64,000 nt of DNA from a bacterium (GTDB lineage: Bacteria; RBG-13-61-14; DATKZS01). Positions 2,565 through 25,545 of the stretch are shown piece by piece. A model generated the notes under the pieces. That model worked only from the letters and a program-made list of their open reading frames with translations. It ran no database searches and had not been told where the DNA came from. The first letter of the stretch is position 1, and each line of letters begins with the position of its first letter. The position numbers and the translations under genes are program-made. The stretch lies in the NCBI GenBank assembly GCA_963674965.2, contig CAXXFL010000006.1:960001-1024000 (forward strand), in the 5' to 3' direction.

Positions 2565-3392
2565 GTGTCAAAAAATGGATTAATAGAAATGTTAAACGAG
2601 TTTCTGTCTCAGCGCGATGTTTTCACTGTCGATGAGTTCGACCGTTATCTTTCGGAGAATGGTTCGGGCAACTTCAACACCAGAAAATCCCTCTTGAATT
2701 ACTACCGAAAGCAAGGCCGAATAATACCAGTGCGACGAGGTTTGTATGCTGTTGTCCGTCACGGGAACTCTCCAGACTCAAGCCCTGTTGATCCCTTCCT
2801 CTTGGCCTCAAAAATGACCAGGGATGCCGTGCTTGCATACCATACGGCGCTTGAATTCCATGGTAAGGCATACTCGGTTTTTACCAGGCTTCACTACCTC
2901 TCTCGGCACAAATCTCAGCCTCTAAAGTTTCGATCATACGAAATCAAGGGAGTGCCTTTTCCCCGGCCACTAATAGCAACAGGCAAGGAGATGTTCGGGG
3001 TCGAGACTTCCAGTCGTTCCGGAGTTGAAGTGAGAGTGACCGGCCTGGAAAGAACTATGGCCGACGTGCTTGATCGGCCGGAATTGACCGGTTCTTGGGA
3101 GGAGATATGGCGTTCCCTTGAGTCAGTAGAGTTTTTCGATTTGAATCAATTGGTCAAATACGTCGAGTTGCTGGGTAACGCGACGACTGCGGCAAAGGTT
3201 GGATTCTTTCTCGATCAGCACAGGGAATCCCTCATGGTCGAGGAAACGCATCTTGAGCCGTTACGAAAGCTGCTGTCCCGCCAACCTCACTACTTGATAC
3301 GGGGCAAGCGCAAGGGCAGCAAATGGGTCAAAGACTGGAACTTGATGGTCCCCGCTGAAATACTAGATAGAACCTGGAGTGAAGTATTATGA
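2565..3392 (+). CDS. abiEi: Type IV TA antitoxin, AbiEi family transcriptional regulator
   Basis: N-terminal wHTH (GRIIPVRRGLY), LAYHTALEFHG, VRVTGLERTMAD; overlaps the toxin by 4 bp. Confidence 0.85.
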   Translation: MSKNGLIEMLNEFLSQRDVFTVDEFDRYLSENGSGNFNTRKSLLNYYRKQGRIIPVRRGLYAVVRHGNSPDSSPVDPFLLASKMTRDAVLAYHTALEFHGKAYSVFTRLHYLSRHKSQPLKFRSYEIKGVPFPRPLIATGKEMFGVETSSRSGVEVRVTGLERTMADVLDRPELTGSWEEIWRSLESVEFFDLNQLVKYVELLGNATTAAKVGFFLDQHRESLMVEETHLEPLRKLLSRQPHYLIRGKRKGSKWVKDWNLMVPAEILDRTWSEVL

Positions 3393-4363
3393 TCCTTTCC
3401 CAATCAGAGTTGCTCCCCATTGCCGAATCAACGGGCTTCAATGCCAATGTTGTCGAGAAGGTCGTCCACCTAATAAACCTCTTGAACAAGCTGAACTCGC
3501 ATCCATATCTCACCGGTAAGCTGGTCTTAAAAGGTGGGTCCGCGCTGAACCTTTTCATCTTCGATCTGCCCCGATTGTCCGTGGATATCGACCTCAATTA
3601 CGTGGGGGCCATCGAGCGTGAGGCAATGCTCGAGGAGAGGCCGAAGGTGGACCATGCAGTTCAAGCCGTATTTTCAAGGGAGGGGTTCGCGGTCAGGAAA
3701 ATACCCGAGGATCACGCTGGAGGAAAGTATCGATTAAACTACCAGAGCTTTGCCGGACAGTCAGGGAATCTCGAAGTAGACTTGAACTTCATGTTCAGAG
3801 AGCCACTCTTTGAGTTGCAGACTCTCGACTCACGACCTTTGGGCGCCTTTGTCGCGAACCATATTCCCGTCCTTGATGTGCACGAACTGGCAGCCGGAAA
3901 ACTGGCCGCTCTTTTCGCAAGGCGCCAGGCGCGGGATATCTTTGATGCCCACCAAATACTCTGCAACACCGATTTGAACCAAGACCGATTGCGAACGGGA
4001 TTCATCGTTTACGGAGCGCTGAATCGAAAGGACTGGCGGACGATATCTTTGGAAGACGTTGCATTTGATAGCAATGAGTTGGAAAGGATGTTGATCCCGC
4101 TTCTCCATTCCGGTATGGCCGTCGGGGAAGAGGATTTTTCAGAATACGCTAAGCGGCTGGTAAGAGAATGTCAGGACAAGCTGGCGATTGTATTCCCCTT
4201 CAAGGAAAAAGAAACAGAGTTTTTGGATCTCATCCTATCCAAGGGAGAAATAAAACCATCCTTGATAGCATCCGATGACGTTCTACAGAGCAGAATTGCA
4301 AGGCATCCCATGTTACTTTGGAAAGCGATGAATGTACGCAAGCATTTCGGTCTTGATAAGTAG
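3389..4363 (+). CDS. abiEii: Type IV TA toxin, AbiEii nucleotidyltransferase
   Basis: LVLKGGSALN...RLSVDIDL NTase motif; KLAAL..RRQARDIFD. Confidence 0.9.
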   Translation: MILSQSELLPIAESTGFNANVVEKVVHLINLLNKLNSHPYLTGKLVLKGGSALNLFIFDLPRLSVDIDLNYVGAIEREAMLEERPKVDHAVQAVFSREGFAVRKIPEDHAGGKYRLNYQSFAGQSGNLEVDLNFMFREPLFELQTLDSRPLGAFVANHIPVLDVHELAAGKLAALFARRQARDIFDAHQILCNTDLNQDRLRTGFIVYGALNRKDWRTISLEDVAFDSNELERMLIPLLHSGMAVGEEDFSEYAKRLVRECQDKLAIVFPFKEKETEFLDLILSKGEIKPSLIASDDVLQSRIARHPMLLWKAMNVRKHFGLDK

Positions 4364-4385: not shown

Positions 4386-5912
4386 TCAGATAAACACCGG
4401 CTCCGTTATCAGCGGAGCCAGTGATACCATTTCCTCTCGTCCCTGCCCAAGGTTACCCTGCTCCCTGGCGAGCACCGCGCAGCGGACCGCGTCGATTATA
4501 TGATCGTTGCCCTTCGAATAGATCACCTTGCCGTCCCGGAGCGTGTAGGTATGGGTCGTGAACTGGTCCTCGATCTCCATGTCATCAGCAGGGAAGATTA
4601 TCTGCTTGCGTTGGAGCCCCCCGTTGATAAGGCTGGTCATCAACTCCTTCGTTCGTTTCTTGACCTCGCGCCCGTCCCGAACCGCCAGGGTGGTCATCCC
4701 GCCGAAGTCGAAGCCGTTCAGCCGTCCCTCAAGCTGGAGAGACTTGTACTTGTCGAGGGTGAGTAGCTCCTGCACTACGGCCAGCCCATTGCCTCCGTTA
4801 TCCACTCCGATCCCGACGGGGGTGAAGTACCGGTCGAGGAGGCCGATAGTCTGGGCTATGTGCGGATAGGTGACATGCTCCATGTGTACGCGCAGGATCA
4901 GCTTTATCACCGAGCGTTCCCCCACCTCCATCTCGCGGAAGACCACGATCTCGGTCGGGTCGTTGGTGTAACCGAGGTCGCCCCCGATCCAGAACATTCC
5001 TGTCTGGGGCATGAGGTTGAGAAGCATCTCCAGCCGGTCGTGGGCCGCCTCCTCGGTCTCGCAGTTCTTGAGCTCGTCGCCGGTGATAACCACCTTCTGG
5101 TATTCCAGGAGTTCCTGGCGGCACAGGTTCAGGTACTCGATGTTGAAAGCTCCATAGGAAGGCTTGCCGTGCTCGCCCGCCACTTCGTGCTGCCAGCCCG
5201 CGCTGTCCTTGCCCCCATAGAACTCGATCAACTCCGCCTCGCGCCGTTCGTTCCAGGCCGGGTTCAGCCACGAGGGCCAGCGGAACACGGTGAACTGCTC
5301 CGAACTCGTTAGACGGTAATAGGTCGTGTTCCGGAGGCCGTTCGGGGTCGAGTAGATGCGGAGCTTGCCCTCGGCCTTGAGACACTGGCGCAGGGCCTTC
5401 CAGGCCTTCTCGGACAGCCACGCCCCTTCGTCCACCCATATCCGGTCAACGTGCAGGGAACGGAACGAATCGCCGTATGCTCCAGCCGGACGGAAATAAA
5501 GGATCGTCCCGTTGGCGAATTCCAACCGGAAGTAAGGCTTCCTGTGAATCTTGGGCTTGCCGTACTTGGTGATGGCCACGCTGTCCATCAGGTCGGAGTT
5601 GGCTTCCAACTGGAACTCGATCTCTTCGATCAAAGTGTCGAGGTGGCCCTGGTGGGGAGCCGCGATTAGTCCCTGGCCGCCCGTGGTGATAAAGGCGAAG
5701 TGCAGCGCGTCGGTGGTGATGTTTACGCTCTTCCCTGCATCCCTTCCGTCAAGGTGGATTACATTCCTGTCCCTGCAGCGCAGGTCCTCCACCTGGTGGG
5801 ACCAGTAATCGCGGGCGGTCCCGTCCCGGTTCTTCAGGTACGCCTGGCCCCACCGGACCGGGTCCAGCAGGGTCTCCGCCAGTTTGCGGTCCCTGGCTTT
5901 CAGCGTTGCCAT
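4386..5912 (-). CDS. Terminase large subunit
   Basis: GRDAGKS (Walker A-like), WVDEG (Walker B), YSTPNG coupling motif, GGDLG..NDPT and NDHIIDA RNase H-like nuclease motifs. Confidence 0.9.
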   Translation of the reverse strand: MATLKARDRKLAETLLDPVRWGQAYLKNRDGTARDYWSHQVEDLRCRDRNVIHLDGRDAGKSVNITTDALHFAFITTGGQGLIAAPHQGHLDTLIEEIEFQLEANSDLMDSVAITKYGKPKIHRKPYFRLEFANGTILYFRPAGAYGDSFRSLHVDRIWVDEGAWLSEKAWKALRQCLKAEGKLRIYSTPNGLRNTTYYRLTSSEQFTVFRWPSWLNPAWNERREAELIEFYGGKDSAGWQHEVAGEHGKPSYGAFNIEYLNLCRQELLEYQKVVITGDELKNCETEEAAHDRLEMLLNLMPQTGMFWIGGDLGYTNDPTEIVVFREMEVGERSVIKLILRVHMEHVTYPHIAQTIGLLDRYFTPVGIGVDNGGNGLAVVQELLTLDKYKSLQLEGRLNGFDFGGMTTLAVRDGREVKKRTKELMTSLINGGLQRKQIIFPADDMEIEDQFTTHTYTLRDGKVIYSKGNDHIIDAVRCAVLAREQGNLGQGREEMVSLAPLITEPVFI

Positions 5913-17380: not shown

Positions 17381-18421
17381 TCAAAATGCCGGGGCGCAAT
17401 CGCTGGCCGCCTGGTCCCGGTCAATGGATTGGTTGGCCTCGACCAGTTCCTCGTGAGGAATGACCTTCTGGTAGAGGTTGTCGATTACGTTGGGATTACC
17501 GTTCGAACTGCAAAGGGGGAAGTAGGCGCACGGTCTCCGGTAATGAAAACAGAACGCGGTGTTCTGATAGAAGACCTCGCGGCGGCGCGCGTCGAGCAGC
17601 GCCTGGGAGAGTTCCCACAACTCGGAGCGTAAGGTTTCGAACTGGTCGCGGGAAAGATAGAGCATCTCGCGATGGAACATTCCCGGCTCGGTGTACTTGG
17701 CGGCCAGCCGTTCCTGGAAGTCATCGTCGCTCTCCGGCATCTTGCGCTTGGCGCTGCTCTTGCCGGTCTTGGACTTGGCGATCAACTCCGCCCGCCGCGC
17801 TTCGAACTCGGTTTCCGTCTCGCCCTTGCCCTGCTGGAGCCTGGCCTTGACCAGGATGTTGTAGATGACTCCGGAGATCTTGACCCCGAGCGCCTGCTCC
17901 ACGTACCAGGTGTAGAGGATGATCTGGAAGTCGGTCCACAACCTCTCAAGGTAATCGGCGTCCAGTTGCGAGGCGGTCTTGTGCTCGAGCAGGAAGTTTT
18001 CATCGCCGATTCGGACAATGCCGTCCACCTTGCCCGCCAGGGTGAAGCTTCTCGATGAGGCCCCCGTGGCGGGGTTTATGATCTTCCCTTCGAAAGGCTG
18101 TTCGAGGGCGACCACTTCGAATTCCTCATCCGGGTACCGGGCCGCGTAAGCCTTCATCATCGCGGCCGCCAGGTGCCATTCCCGAAGCTCATTGTCATCC
18201 TGGGTCCGGTTAGGGTAGGAGCGGTCGATGTATTCGAGCACCGCGGCGAGGTCCCGTCCCCGATGCCAGAGCTCGAGGCACTCATGAATGATCGATCCGA
18301 AGCTGAGGTTCCTGTCCTTCTCCAGCGGCACGAGTTCCTTGATGTAACGCCACTCGAAGGCTTTGCGGCAGTTGCGGAACATGGACCACATCGAATAGGT
18401 GGTGATCATCTGGCCGCTCAT
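17381..18421 (-). CDS. PD-(D/E)XK nuclease (RecB/Cas4-like)
   Basis: N-terminal C (NCRK), GKVDGIV...LEHKT, Q..LY, C-terminal CFHYRRPCAYFPLC Fe-S-type cysteines. Confidence 0.85.
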   Translation of the reverse strand: MSGQMITTYSMWSMFRNCRKAFEWRYIKELVPLEKDRNLSFGSIIHECLELWHRGRDLAAVLEYIDRSYPNRTQDDNELREWHLAAAMMKAYAARYPDEEFEVVALEQPFEGKIINPATGASSRSFTLAGKVDGIVRIGDENFLLEHKTASQLDADYLERLWTDFQIILYTWYVEQALGVKISGVIYNILVKARLQQGKGETETEFEARRAELIAKSKTGKSSAKRKMPESDDDFQERLAAKYTEPGMFHREMLYLSRDQFETLRSELWELSQALLDARRREVFYQNTAFCFHYRRPCAYFPLCSSNGNPNVIDNLYQKVIPHEELVEANQSIDRDQAASDCAPAF

Positions 18422-18735
18422 ACCGCCGCCTCCATGGGCTGGCGGGGTTCCTCCCGTGGCTCTCGGGCAAGCGTACGCTCGACCTTGAACGCCTCTTCCC
18501 CGAATTGCCGGGTGATAAAACCGGTGAAAATTTTGGCGATGTTCCTGCCGACCTCGGTGCCCGCGTCGATTACGCATGAGCGCTTTTTCAGGTCCAATCT
18601 GAATTTCGCGTCCAGCCTGATCAGGGACCGACCATGCATGCACTCGGCGGCGAGAGCCGACAACATCAGAGAGTCCTCCACGTCCTCGAGCGCCACCTCG
18701 GGATAAAACTTGTAATGGTAAACTTGCGAATTCAT
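18418..18735 (-). CDS. Hypothetical phage protein
   Basis: SD aggagg before the ATG at 18735; ATGA overlap with the next gene. Confidence 0.7.
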   Translation of the reverse strand: MNSQVYHYKFYPEVALEDVEDSLMLSALAAECMHGRSLIRLDAKFRLDLKKRSCVIDAGTEVGRNIAKIFTGFITRQFGEEAFKVERTLAREPREEPRQPMEAAV

Positions 18736-18866: not shown

Positions 18867-19451
18867 TCAGAGATAATTTTTCAGGCCGGCCTCGTCGAAG
18901 ATTTCCCTAACCTTCCGGATAGCCTCGTAAATCGTGCTTCGGGGCATGCCCAACTCGGAAGAGATATCGGATACCGTCTGAGTCTTAAGCCGCTCGCACA
19001 GGTCACGAAAATTCTCCGGCAGTCGTTCCAGCGTTCTCTCGACGTCCATGACCATCTCGCGATGGTCCTCGGGAGATCGGTCCGCCAGGCCAACGCTCAG
19101 TAGGTACTCTTCCTCGCTGACGCGCTCTCGCCATTGGGTCGGCCTTTCGCAATCTGGATCATTCGAGTCCAATGAAAAGGCGCGCATTCGCCAATCTCGT
19201 TTCCCGGCCTTACTCGCCGCGATGATAGAGGCGACCCGGCGGTTTACGATTCGACTGATAAAGGTGTTTCGCTTAGCGACGGCGGCGTCGTATTTGGGCA
19301 GGCGCATGAGCAGGCAGAGAGCCAGGTCCTGCTCGACGTCTTCCCGGTCCGCCCTTCGGAACCCTGGCTGATTTATCAGTTGCCAGGACTTGACCTGAAT
19401 TAAATTCACCGCGTACTCCTCGATTCCGGGGTATTTATTCCTTGTTCCCAT
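18867..19451 (-). CDS. Phage-encoded sigma-70 family (ECF-like) sigma factor
   Basis: Region 2 (DREDVEQDL...YD...TFISRIV) and region 4 HTH (LERLPENFR...TVSDISSELGMPRSTIYEAIRK). Confidence 0.85.
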   Translation of the reverse strand: MGTRNKYPGIEEYAVNLIQVKSWQLINQPGFRRADREDVEQDLALCLLMRLPKYDAAVAKRNTFISRIVNRRVASIIAASKAGKRDWRMRAFSLDSNDPDCERPTQWRERVSEEEYLLSVGLADRSPEDHREMVMDVERTLERLPENFRDLCERLKTQTVSDISSELGMPRSTIYEAIRKVREIFDEAGLKNYL

Positions 19452-19600
19452 CTGGTCCTCCTCGCGGCCGAGGAGGAAGCCATGTGGGTGTCATCCATTG
19501 CCGGGCCGCCGTCTTAGAACGGATCGTCGCGAGTTCGCCGGTTTGGCGACACCCACAACGACCTCCGCTCAACGGCCAGTCGGTTGTCTGGTGGTTAATG
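19452..19600 (-). ncRNA. Candidate structured 5' leader of the sigma gene
   Basis: Perfect 10-bp helix 19483-19492/19548-19557 extended by G-U pairs; competing 9-bp hairpin 19456-19477 covers the SD. Confidence 0.55.
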
Positions 19601-19615
19601 TTCAGGGCTACTGAT

Positions 19616-19948
19616 TCAGCGCCCGACCGAATCCTCTATTTCCATGGAGAAGGGAAGGCCCGCCTGAACCTCCAGTAGGATGATGGTCCCGTCGTGCAGA
19701 TCGAATATGTGGTCTAACAAACGGCTGACCTTTTCCTTGAGCGGGAAGTCTTTTGCACTGTCCTGGCGGCGCGGGCCATTGTCGGCCCCGAGCTTGATCT
19801 TGCGGACCACCCTGGGCGGCGGATCGAAAACCGGCTCCCCCTCCGCGATCACGAGTCCCTCGATGCGCCCGTAATTGATCTCCGACATGAGATCGACCAG
19901 CTTCCGGCTGGAAGCGCCCAGTGAAAATTTCGTTGCCTGGTTTTTCAT
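19616..19948 (-). CDS. Hypothetical protein upstream of the sigma gene
   Basis: 110 aa ORF co-oriented with sigma; SD-like gaagg. Confidence 0.7.
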   Translation of the reverse strand: MKNQATKFSLGASSRKLVDLMSEINYGRIEGLVIAEGEPVFDPPPRVVRKIKLGADNGPRRQDSAKDFPLKEKVSRLLDHIFDLHDGTIILLEVQAGLPFSMEIEDSVGR

Positions 19949-19971: not shown

Positions 19972-20165
19972 GTGAAATCTCCGGGGCGAATCCCGGCGCT
20001 CGGATTTTTCCGAGCCTTTGCCCCTTATTGGGGAAATTTCACCGGGAGGGTTGAAAAAGTGACGCCGGGACGGGCTAAAACGACGCAACCCCCTGGATTA
20101 CAGGGGGTTTACGTGAAGGAAAAAATTTTAAATTTTCATTAAGGCCCCGGTGAAATTTCACCGGG
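19972..20165. promoter_or_regulatory. Cluster of palindromic operator-like sites
   Basis: Perfect 20-bp palindrome CCCGGTGAAATTTCACCGGG at 20146-20165; degenerate copies at 20030-20046 and 19972-19986; hairpins at 19998-20015 and 20087-20109. Confidence 0.6.
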
Positions 20166-22517: not shown

Positions 22518-23168
22518 TCAATCCTTGGCTTGCCTGATCGCCACTACTTTGCCGAGAATGCGCAGATCGTCATCTGGGCCGATGGGAATCGGTTGGTACT
22601 TGGGATTCTCCGGACGGAGTTCAATGCGAGCGTCACGAACGTAGAGCCTTTTCACGGTCGCTTCATCATCAAGAAGAGCCACGACTATATCCCCGCTCTC
22701 AGCCACCGGCTGTTGGCGGACGATGACGAGATCGCCTTCATTGATACCGGCGTCGGTCATGCTGTCCCCGGAAACGGAAAGCGCGAAACAGCGGCCCGAC
22801 CGCGCGGCCTTGTCGTCAATTAAAATTTCACCCGTGACGTTTTCCACGGCCAGGATCGGTACTCCCGCCGCGACCTTGCCCACTATGGGAACCGAGACAA
22901 GCTCGGTAAGCCGGCTGTCGGGCTCGCGCAAAACGGTCAAACCGCGCGCCTTGCCCGGCTCGCGCTTTAAATAGCCCTTCCTGATCAGTTGGTTGATCTG
23001 GGCGTGCGCGCTCATCTGAGAGATGCCGAGAATCTCCGAGAGTTCCTTGATCGAGGGAGGAAAGCCCTTGCGAACGATGAAATCGCCTATCTCCGAAAGC
23101 GTGTTCCGCTGCGGCTCCGTGATTTCATCCGTCGGGCGTCTGCCCCGGGGTTTTGGCTTTTTTTTCAT
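22518..23168 (-). CDS. lexA: LexA-type repressor (prophage-encoded)
   Basis: wHTH (GFPPSIKELSEILG), VAAG cleavage site, GDSM catalytic Ser, TVKRL catalytic Lys. Confidence 0.9.
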   Translation of the reverse strand: MKKKPKPRGRRPTDEITEPQRNTLSEIGDFIVRKGFPPSIKELSEILGISQMSAHAQINQLIRKGYLKREPGKARGLTVLREPDSRLTELVSVPIVGKVAAGVPILAVENVTGEILIDDKAARSGRCFALSVSGDSMTDAGINEGDLVIVRQQPVAESGDIVVALLDDEATVKRLYVRDARIELRPENPKYQPIPIGPDDDLRILGKVVAIRQAKD

Positions 23169-23238
23169 CAGAATCGTTCTTCGCGATTTAATTAGGAGGC
23201 GGTTGTTCCTCCAACCGTCTCCAGCCAAGAGTGGCCAT

Positions 23239-23266
23239 ATAATAGCACTTATGTACATAAGGTCAA
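23239..23266 (-). promoter_or_regulatory. Sigma70 promoter of the lexA operon with a palindromic operator in the spacer
   Basis: TTGACC-N16-TATTAT with an extended -10 TG; perfect palindrome CTTATGTACATAAG at 23248-23261. Confidence 0.65.
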
Positions 23267-23426: not shown

Positions 23427-23960
23427 CTACCGGCGTGACAGGCGCTCTATCTTCATCGCTTCCCACTCTTCTCTTTGCCGGTTCCAATGGGGGATCGCGG
23501 TGATCGGCCGCAGGTTCTGCTCGCGGATCGGATCACGGCCTCTGACCGTTCGGGGCAGGAAGAGGATTTCCTCCTGGATGTCGGGGGCGAGGTTGGTGAG
23601 GTTCATGATCTGGGTGACGCGGGCCCGGGTGACGTAGCCAAGGCGGGCGAGATCGGCGTAGTCGCGGACCTCGCCGCGGGCGAGCATGCCTTCGAACTTG
23701 ATGGCCAGGGCCATGAGGCGGGTGACGCGGGGGATGTTACCGGAAGCGACGTCGTGACTTGAGGCGGATTCGGGAGCGGGAGCGTCGGCGCCGGAACTGG
23801 CCCGAGCATTGCGGGGAGTAAACGTGAACTCAACGTCGACCTTGTCCACTCCATCTCCCGCCGATTTATGATTGCCAATTTTCATTTCCTTGATTAACCT
23901 CCCGTCAATCTCTTTTTTTTCATTTTCCCACTCCGCCTCTGGCGAGTTCCTTGATCCCAA
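23427..23960 (-). CDS. Recombinase-associated HTH protein
   Basis: PRVTRLMALA...YADLARLGYVTRARVTQIMNLTNLAPDIQEEIL; start uncertain (23885 possible). Confidence 0.7.
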   Translation of the reverse strand: MGSRNSPEAEWENEKKEIDGRLIKEMKIGNHKSAGDGVDKVDVEFTFTPRNARASSGADAPAPESASSHDVASGNIPRVTRLMALAIKFEGMLARGEVRDYADLARLGYVTRARVTQIMNLTNLAPDIQEEILFLPRTVRGRDPIREQNLRPITAIPHWNRQREEWEAMKIERLSRR

Positions 23961-25545
23961 GGGACCTGAAGCTGATGGTCACCTTGCCGGTGGAGCCGTC
24001 GTAGCCAACCTTGTCGAGCAGGAGATGAAGTATCCTGGACTGCTCGCTTGAGTTCAGGGACTCCCAGACCGGGTCAAAGACGGCCAGGGCCCTGACCAGG
24101 TCGCCGGAATCGAGGGTATCGCGCTCGACGGCGATAAGTTCCTCGCGCAGTTGGGTCATCCTTTGCTCGGCGCTCCTGATTATGTCCTGAAGATCGGCGA
24201 GCCTGGCGGTGTCCAGCGATTGATTGTCCCGGCCCAGGTTCATGTCGCTCACCAGATTTTTAAGTTTGGAATGCATCCGCTTGAGCTCCTTCTCCCCAGC
24301 GAGACGCTCGCGGTCAAGCTCTTGCCGCCGCTTCTCGCTCAGTTCACGGAATTGCCTCACGGTCTCAGCGACCAGCCTCTCGTCCGTGCCCAGCCCCCTG
24401 ATATGTTCGACTACGGCCCTTTCGATTTCATGGGCGTTAAGCGACTTGGAGGGACACGAGTCCCAGCCGCGCTGTTGCGCGTTCATGCAGACGTAGTAGC
24501 GGTAACGACGGTGGCCTCCCTTCTTTATCGTGTACGTGTGCATCATGGGTTTGCCGCAGGGCACGCAGTGGATAAGGCCCTTGAGGAGAGCGCCGTGCTT
24601 GTTTCGCAAGCCGGCGTTTTTACCCTGGCCGTTCTTTTTCAAAAGCTCTTGCGCCTCGCGCCAAATCTCCGGAGCGACGATAGCTTCATGCTCGCCGTCG
24701 TAAACCGTCCCCTGGAAATAAATTTTGCCGGTGTAGACGATATTGGTGAGCAGGCTGTAGAGATAATGCTTGGCAAAGGGCTTACCGCCGCGCGCCTTGC
24801 CCTTTTTGGTAATCCACCGCTTGGTCTTCCAACCCCGCTCGTTAAGCTCATTGACCACGGGGATAAGGCCTCGACGCTCCAGATATAAATCGAAAATCTC
24901 GCGCACCCGCGCGGCCTCTCGTTTGTTCACGACGATGCGGCCGCCTTTCTCGTCCAGGTCATAGCCCAGTATCAGCATGCCGCCGATCCACTTGCCCTTT
25001 TTACGGGCGGCCGACATCTTGTCCCGCGTTCGCTCGGAGATGATCTCGCGCTCGAACTGGGCGAAGGAGAGGAGCATGTTGAGGGTGAGGCGCCCCATGG
25101 AGTCGGTGGTCGAGAACTTCTGGGTGACCGAGACGAAGGAGACGTCGTGCTCTTCAAATATCTCCATGAGGCGGCTGAAGTCTATAAGCGATCGAGAGAG
25201 CCGGTCCACCTTGTAGACGACCACCACGTCAATCTTGCCGGCCTCGACGTCGGCCATCAAACGCTTGAGAGCGGGCCGATCCATGTTGCCGCCGGAGAAG
25301 CCGCCGTCGTCGTAAAGGTCAGGCAAGCACGCCCAGCCTTCGTGCTTCATGCTGGAGACGTAGTCTTCAGCCGATTCCCTCTGGGCGTCCAGACTGTTGA
25401 AGTCCAGGTCGAGACCCTCCTCCGTGGACTTGCGCGTGTAGATGGCGCATCGCGCCTTGCCGTTGTTTTTGGGCACGTCGCTGTCAAAAGCTCCCGTCTT
25501 TCTCGGCCGCCTCCGCGTGTTAATGTTCAAATCCCCTCCTTTCAT
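23920..25545 (-). CDS. Large serine recombinase (resolvase + recombinase + Zn ribbon + coiled coil)
   Basis: AIYTRKST catalytic Ser, KVDRLSRS, FAQFERE; CVPCG...YYVC...C zinc ribbon. Confidence 0.92.
   Translation of the reverse strand: MKGGDLNINTRRRPRKTGAFDSDVPKNNGKARCAIYTRKSTEEGLDLDFNSLDAQRESAEDYVSSMKHEGWACLPDLYDDGGFSGGNMDRPALKRLMADVEAGKIDVVVVYKVDRLSRSLIDFSRLMEIFEEHDVSFVSVTQKFSTTDSMGRLTLNMLLSFAQFEREIISERTRDKMSAARKKGKWIGGMLILGYDLDEKGGRIVVNKREAARVREIFDLYLERRGLIPVVNELNERGWKTKRWITKKGKARGGKPFAKHYLYSLLTNIVYTGKIYFQGTVYDGEHEAIVAPEIWREAQELLKKNGQGKNAGLRNKHGALLKGLIHCVPCGKPMMHTYTIKKGGHRRYRYYVCMNAQQRGWDSCPSKSLNAHEIERAVVEHIRGLGTDERLVAETVRQFRELSEKRRQELDRERLAGEKELKRMHSKLKNLVSDMNLGRDNQSLDTARLADLQDIIRSAEQRMTQLREELIAVERDTLDSGDLVRALAVFDPVWESLNSSEQSRILHLLLDKVGYDGSTGKVTISFRSLGIKELARGGVGK

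Follow-up and report, generated by a model that had tools for sequence, protein, structure and literature searches.

The 164-nt spacer between a small open reading frame and the sigma-factor gene of a prophage is quite likely a cis-acting leader RNA with several folding states, which is carried by the early prophage transcript and controls initiation of sigma translation. Alternative pairings of this RNA probably hide or expose the ribosome-binding site of the sigma gene, and so gate the output of a regulator of phage transcription. Four helix sets (P0, H1, fold B, and the SD/AUG hairpin) were found in the leader; they are mutually exclusive, they are conserved in relatives, and they covary. 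Overall, the leader represents a new family of cis-acting RNA switch over the start site of a sigma gene, within a known kind of regulation.

Phage sigma factors redirect the host polymerase; therefore, the course of an infection is decided by when they are made and in what amount. A long and very strongly conserved RNA sits exactly on this control point, and it is a candidate, open to test, for a new riboregulator under the control of a protein or of kinetics. Since one of its strands has three mutually exclusive pairings that are supported by covariation, the leader is a natural system that should be useful for studying folding decisions during transcription.

Location of the leader in the prophage

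The leader is surrounded by a prophage early region, transcribed leftwards, within the window (the whole stretch of 64,000 nt that was analysed, to which all coordinates refer). The genes and sites that concern it are listed below.

23920-25545: serine recombinase, prophage early region
22518-23258: LexA/S24-type repressor, prophage early region
19616..19948, minus strand: up110, a 110-aa ORF taken from the ORF list, first gene past the operator-like region
19452..19615, minus strand: whole intergenic leader, 164 nt, the gap between the up110 and sigma ORFs
19447..19451, minus strand: start codon AUG (19451-19449) followed by GG; pairs with CCCA of segment c when the leader is closed
18867..19451, minus strand: sigma-factor gene, 194 aa, ECF-like, divergent, matching phrog_1740
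18421-18735, minus strand: conserved core of dn139 (139-aa ORF), AF2 model with pLDDT 88.0
4386-5912: large terminase, prophage early region

The gene order is serine recombinase, DUF2924, LexA/S24-type repressor, two unknown genes, up110, leader and sigma, followed past sigma by dn139, a PD-(D/E)XK nuclease, AAA_24, a RecD-like helicase, primase and the large terminase. A first-pass annotation of this DNA, made from the sequence, had called the gene downstream of the leader a phage sigma factor, and this assignment is supported: the protein matches phrog_1740 ‘RNA polymerase sigma factor’ with E 3.1e-15 and is encoded in the prophage early region. The match to the ECF superfamily model TIGR02937 is weak (E 7.4e-6, 25.7 bits, below the cut-off of 42.9), and Pfam gives HTH matches only, all sub-threshold. 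The host 16S rRNA ends 3' in ...CACCUCCUUUCU, with a canonical anti-SD.

Throughout the prophage family the sigma gene is flanked by up110 and dn139. The AF2 model of up110 is confident (pLDDT 87.6), with no match to a known fold (best Foldseek E 0.32; best VIA Z 3.3). The dn139 core is a generic beta-alpha-beta-beta-alpha-beta sandwich, for which only ferredoxin-like rows were returned, with E 3e-3 or weaker.

Strands and helices of the leader

The strands were named z, a, b, c and d from 5' to 3', d being the SD strand. Their positions and those of the helices are as follows.

19572..19593, minus strand: segment z, CACCAGACAAC...GGCCGU, 5' arm of the nascent hairpin P0
19545..19571, minus strand: segment a, the switch strand UGAGCGGAGGUCGUUGUGGGUGUCGCC, with an SD-like GGAGG inside; partners z, b or c
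19517..19539, minus strand: segment b, 3' arm of the long hairpin H1
19576-19508, minus strand: H1 in full (a:b), -44.1 kcal/mol alone
19466..19492, minus strand: segment c, GACACCCACAUGGCUUCCUCCUCGGCC, 3' arm of fold B (with a) and anti-SD/anti-AUG strand (with d)
19557-19548 with 19492-19483, minus strand: fold B core, UGUGGGUGUC with GACACCCACA, 55 nt between the arms
19456..19477, minus strand: SD hairpin UCCUCCUCG-GCCG-CGAGGAGGA, arms 19477-19469 and 19464-19456, SD core GGAGG at 19461-19457
19446..19593, minus strand: match to covariance model R1 (see below), 99.8 bits, E 2e-21

On the minus strand, the sequence strings of the first-pass annotation, its SD hairpin and its 10-bp long-range helix were all found where it had placed them. 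When a 181-nt stretch was folded, the minimum free energy (MFE) was -81.5, compared with -59.8 +/- 4.0 for dinucleotide shuffles (z-score -5.45; 0/200 as good). The folding check proposed by that annotation thus confirms a strongly structured RNA, but its two folds fare differently. The 9-bp hairpin that it took to bury the SD (fold A) lies within the MFE structure, with pair probabilities of 0.88-0.9999; the hairpin has -16.5 kcal/mol alone and -27.6 together with an outer stem, which also pairs the AUG. Fold B is absent from the MFE structure, in which H1 is formed instead. Every pair written out for the extended fold B is a standard pair, and a perfect helix of at least 10 bp occurred in 11/1000 dinucleotide shuffles of the 164-nt spacer. 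However, the best structure with the extended fold B has -69.1, which is 12.4 kcal/mol above the MFE, because its 5' arm is also the 5' arm of H1. At equilibrium the probability of the fold B core pairs is about 0 in the window leader, so that the open state is essentially unpopulated. As duplexes, a:b and a:c have close energies in the window (-46.7 and -45.8), and the two are within about 1-7 kcal/mol in most leaders.

Folds A and B had been described as mutually exclusive. This is true of the extension of fold B, whereas the 10-bp core is compatible with the SD hairpin. The scheme of two states had to be abandoned, since three strands (z, b and c) can pair with strand a.

The pairings can be read as a single working scheme. 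The G/U-rich strand a can pair with z in P0, the first pairing during transcription, or with b in H1, or with c in fold B. With a held by b or z, c would pair with the SD and the start codon and sigma would be closed; with a paired to c, the SD and AUG would be single-stranded and sigma would be open. Capture of c by a is the sole way in this scheme to release the SD and AUG. The closed state would appear to be the default, both by thermodynamics and by order of synthesis. After P0, b and c would race for strand a during transcription, and its result could depend on polymerase speed or on a factor that keeps P0 in place or blocks access to b.

The first-pass annotation had offered three possible setters of the switch. 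An alternative transcript start is ruled out since strand a lies 5' of the competitor b, and a change of start therefore cannot yield the open form. The up110 protein is not supported as a trigger, as its confident model matches no known fold and gives no hint that it binds RNA, and a ligand is not favoured since pairing accounts for almost all conserved bases. A search for triggers gave no conserved leader peptide, neither a further copy of strand a nor a sequence complementary to it in the window, and no RNA-binding fold in up110 or dn139, where fold searches of this kind say nothing for or against RNA binding. The complementarity of z, a, b and c to the host rRNA operon does not exceed what random stretches of the genome give. 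The leader element is single-copy in the 6.5-Mb genome.

Leaders in related prophages

The sigma protein evolves fast, and a search with it returned distant relatives only (5, 5 and 6 loci), and matches in 2 of 61 genomes, the window's own included. Homologous leaders were instead recovered by anchoring on the conserved neighbouring nuclease, which is 63-82% identical across 160 loci. Homologues of up110 stay adjacent to the leader in relatives; up110 is followed by sigma in the same order at 111 loci (window counted). Their spacing is 120-260 nt in 89 loci, 95 nt in one and 1085 nt in one, and in 20 loci the two genes overlap by 1-8 nt. The 89 spacers reduce to 41 unique leaders, which have near-invariant blocks in common, while the sigma proteins of the leader loci are only 25-73% identical to that of the window.

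A covariance model (R1) of the closed structure was built from ten leaders of other loci, with the window excluded. It gave 91 full-length matches in 179 sources (46/100 and 45/79), all on the plus strand and each ending at the sigma start; two further matches were weak (L170, E 0.0014) or cut (L132). The window leader belongs to this family: it is matched by R1, has all the helices, and lies immediately 5' of the sigma start. When genome contigs were scanned with a loose 15-base pattern, most matches were due to chance; the model confirmed 4/80 fetched loci, all 4 in the same gene context.

In the 20 overlap loci R1 found no match. These are distant relatives with the same up110-sigma pair, translationally coupled and without the leader. 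L006, one of the distant loci found with the sigma protein, has the same three genes, and there too the upstream ORF overlaps the sigma start (ATGA), with no spacer. By comparison with these loci, the leader-bearing lineage has swapped the coupling of up110 and sigma for a structured spacer.

The prophage family occurs in isolates of Desulfobacterota and Gammaproteobacteria, in MAGs labelled with about ten phylum-level groups, and in 67 IMG/VR contigs; among the cultured phages of the phage collection none has the leader, nor does any have a close nuclease. As many as 35 loci have one and the same leader of 188 nt. The nuclease lineage (L021-L180) includes complete or isolate genomes of Desulfobacterota and Ectothiorhodospira, and its host spread is unusually wide, which MAG binning may inflate. 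Small runs (X2-X12, 12-104 million letters, from wastewater, sludge and aquatic sources) hold all sampled words of the L108 type, which suggests that the leader element is abundant in these habitats.

Two cases depart from the common arrangement. In L148 (1386-2472) about 1.08 kb separates up110 from the leader, and this is the sole locus where the two are apart. In genome G047 the sigma homologue (L014 1348-1967; L013 1330-1973) consists of two overlapping ORFs in different frames, of about 123-131 aa and 118 aa, which in L014 begin 8 nt after up110; a frameshift, splitting of the gene or an error of assembly may account for this.

Conservation and covariation

Variation is concentrated outside the leader. 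Among 44 loci of one clade, the variable sites are 6/195 in the leader, 56/300 in up110 and 152/582 in sigma. In four environmental runs no variant was found inside the leader and many were found in both flanks. These runs are assembled contigs, three of them recorded as RNA and one with a guessed RNA label; contigs in all four span up110, leader and sigma (L108 type), and such assembly cannot show transcription, ends or processing.

The helices were evaluated on a model-based alignment (A3) of 41 rows, 37 of them distinct, which was fitted to the closed structure and whose rows are related; two rows (L139 and L093) are misaligned in the 3' part. All four helix sets are about 90% paired, compared with 30-64% in slid controls, with compensatory changes throughout. 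For the closed structure as a whole, 90.0% of cells are paired (slid controls 38-53%) and 22/50 pairs changed on both sides, a number that 0/500 shuffles reached. Within it, H1 (25 pairs) is 91.5% paired with 7 pairs changed on both sides, and the model helix that pairs the AUG (helix 4) is 86.7% paired. The SD hairpin is kept with variant SD/anti-SD pairs, and the ATG is invariant in alignment A1. P0 has 92.1% paired cells (slid controls 30-64%), and both sides changed in 4 pairs (34/500 shuffles) and 33 cells (0/500).

The competing pairing a:c, also of 25 pairs, was evaluated on this same alignment, fitted to the closed structure and not to a:c; 91.5% are paired, compared with 36-51% in slid controls. 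Changes on both sides affect 5 pairs (10/500 shuffles) and 19 cells (0/500); ‘further pair types’ are not above shuffles (382/500). Strand a is near-invariant across the 41 unique leaders, and the conservation of both a and c is strong enough to leave many a:c pairs without any variation. Where pairs do vary, coupled covariations tie one position to two partners: c192 covaries with a35 and d237 (G:C:C in 11 rows, A:U:U in 10), a35 with z14 and c192 (U:A:A or C:G:G), and a49 with b111 and c178 (C:G:G in 33 rows, U:A:A in 1).

A plain MAFFT alignment with RNAalifold recovered only the H1 core and part of P0, because the 3' half is out of register in that alignment. An inner hairpin considered for the open state, in which the 3' end of b would pair with the GAGCGG copy that comes after it, was rejected, being 54.0% paired and no better than shuffles. 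The first-pass annotation would have been contradicted by a lack of conservation or covariation in homologues; in about 90 homologous leaders both its SD hairpin and its long-range helix are kept, with compensatory changes.

Energetics and order of folding, heuristic estimates

In each of 14 representatives that were folded (14/14), the MFE structure is the closed one, H1 with the SD hairpin. Across the 37 distinct full-length leaders the median advantage of the closed state is 9.6 kcal/mol, with a range of 0.0 to +25.8; because this gap differs widely between relatives, a conserved thermodynamic set-point is not seen. The a:c duplex can be formed in 41/41 leaders, at -30 to -48 kcal/mol. In transcripts cut before strand d, the median difference between H1 and a:c is -0.5 kcal/mol, within a range of -10.1 to +20.6. 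A P0-like hairpin (z:a) is found in 21/22 distinct nascent 5' parts, at -15 to -23 kcal/mol, and this pairing explains the conservation of CACCAGACAAC.

When the window leader was folded as a growing chain, the MFE structure contained P0 at chain lengths of 60-92, H1 from 96, a:c at 152, and H1 with the SD hairpin from 156. The direct-path barrier from P0 to H1 is 7.4-8.5 kcal/mol while b emerges, and that between H1 and a:c is about 27-29 kcal/mol; both values are heuristic upper bounds and not kinetics. Since the first barrier is low, most transcripts should close without a helper, and since the second is large, both long helices would be traps. The outcome is therefore most likely decided during transcription, and this decision may be set by a factor or by the elongation rate.

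It is conceivable, though doubtful, that the leader also represents a new class of co-transcriptional RNA decision device. In such a device the transient P0 would hold the switch strand until both rival partners are made, and a host or phage factor, or the polymerase speed after induction, would set the fraction of transcripts locked open or closed. If so, the leader would be a commitment switch or timer for the middle and late genes driven by sigma, in a prophage lineage that extends across many phyla, and it would double as a terminator in a few relatives.

Alternative explanations

Some of the same data could be explained by a fixed structure. In this explanation H1 and the SD hairpin form a constitutive damper or processing element with no functional open state, which keeps sigma translation low, stabilises the mRNA or offers a site for a double-strand RNase, and a:c is a by-product of the similarity between b and c. 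The closed state is indeed the MFE structure in all the representatives and is favoured by the median energy given above, H1 is a long near-perfect duplex, and no trigger came out of the search. However, an a:c pairing that is kept at 91.5% with compensatory and coupled changes, changes in c being matched in both of its partners, speaks against a by-product, as do a:b and a:c energies that are matched within the few kcal/mol found in most leaders. Moreover, a static block needs neither the wobble-rich middle of H1 nor a conserved P0. Overall, a constitutive element appears unlikely.

There seems to be little chance that the leader is mainly a transcription attenuator, in which H1 would be an intrinsic terminator, P0 the antiterminator, and read-through into sigma the main output. 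Strand a is contested by P0 and H1, and in four relatives (L148, L139, L170 and L093) 6-7 U follow H1 directly. The window and the large clades have no U-run after H1, and a terminator scan of the window leader on the minus strand gave none; furthermore, the conserved c:d and a:c pairings would be left unexplained. The four relatives are of a ‘short type’, with a very short region between H1 and c, in which H1 looks like an intrinsic terminator. Judging from the sequence of these four, H1 may also terminate transcription in them.

It is very improbable that the leader is a ligand-sensing riboswitch, with a small molecule stabilising P0 or another fold. A conserved leader with alternative pairings that resemble an expression platform would suit a riboswitch, as would the few conserved unpaired bases in P0 (AG, GG, A and G). 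However, the alternative helices explain nearly every conserved base, neither a multi-stem junction nor a conserved loop was seen, the apical loop of P0 is variable, and a phage regulator would be an unusual target. The Rfam search proposed by the first-pass annotation was run and gave no Rfam 15 family inside the window leader at E up to 10; the leaders of two relatives gave chance-level matches only (13-18 bits, with cut-offs of 43-142).

A role at the DNA level, as an operator, recombination site or origin, can hardly be credited, and neither can chance inverted repeats: inverted repeats are present on both strands and the antisense also folds (mean -74.3), but the sense strand folds better in 32/37 leaders (-78.9 compared with -63.6 in the window), H1 keeps G-U pairs (UG 31, UA 6; GC 19, GU 18) that count against this explanation because they are mismatches on the other strand, the structures take in the SD and AUG, none of the 200 shuffles folds as well, and the element is conserved over about 90 loci.

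Three other classes were considered and rejected. An RNA thermometer of the ROSE or fourU kind does not fit an SD hairpin of nine perfect, mostly G-C pairs, and temperature hardly shifts the balance, the gap between closed and open being 13.4 kcal/mol at 15 C and still 11.5 kcal/mol at 55 C. The frame that opens with the invariant GUG downstream of GGAGG was dismissed as a leader peptide, since it lacks a conserved stop: it ends 4 to >140 codons on, and at different places even in sister sequences. A toxin mRNA of the hok/Sok kind was rejected since the downstream ORF is a sigma factor and the window holds no further copy of strand a and nothing complementary to it as a second element.

Comparison with known systems

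No published description of the leader element was found by searches of the full text of papers. A term search of PMC5737381 gave nothing relevant, and ‘sigma’ occurred 0 times.

The preferred reading of the spacer, a multi-state leader controlling sigma translation, has counterparts among phage and bacterial RNAs. The mRNA of phage lambda cIII adopts either of two exclusive folds, and in one of them the SD and start codon are occluded; both folds are short and confined to the start region, and they stand in equilibrium. Like the leader, cIII is a phage regulator mRNA with exclusive folds, although the two are not homologous, and the leader is set apart by a strand that has three partners, by a duplex of about 25 bp and by its large barriers.

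Studies of hok/Sok are said to have described metastable folding and to have used ‘coupled covariations’. In the type I toxin mRNA aapA3/IsoA3 of Helicobacter pylori, metastable folds that sequester the SD form during transcription (PMC6733600; cf. PMC9841398). Type I toxin mRNAs thus resemble the leader in that successive co-transcriptional hairpins sequester the SD, long-range pairings lock the inactive form, and one strand has several alternative partners. In contrast, neither a toxin nor an antisense RNA was found with the leader, which is an internal intergenic element before a sigma factor, with no sequence or model similarity to them.

In riboswitch and attenuator platforms (sequestor/anti-sequestor; trp-type 1:2, 2:3 and 3:4), as in the leader, exclusive helices lead to an SD sequestor, or, as in the four short-type relatives, to a terminator. 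Unlike the trp-type chain, in which neighbours pair, strand a pairs with z, b or c, and the leader has no conserved leader peptide, recognisable aptamer or Rfam match. The rpsO (S15) operator alternates between a pseudoknot and a double hairpin, and translation is controlled by a protein that traps one of these two conformations (PMC3985624). It shares with the leader alternative conformations over translation, the rpsO element being autoregulated by a ribosomal protein.

Sites upstream of up110 and other observations

The 234 nt that precede up110 contain a palindrome in two copies, one perfect over 16 bp (CGGTGAAATTTCACCG, 20148-20163) and the other with 2 mismatches (20029-20044). A promoter-like TTCACC-18-TAAAAT (20154..20125, minus strand) overlaps the first copy, and the palindromes are likely operators of the early promoter. 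Similar GGTGAAAnTTCACC palindromes occur directly upstream of sigma in L152, L153, L159, L085 and L087, which are without up110 and without the leader. Between the promoter-like site and up110 lies a terminator-like hairpin, AACCCCCTG..CAGGGGGTT followed by GCGTCGTTTT (20087-20109, minus strand), which could be the terminator of an upstream operon or an early attenuator. An AbiEi/AbiEii toxin-antitoxin pair (2565-4363) is encoded on the opposite, plus strand beside the large terminase, inside the prophage region.
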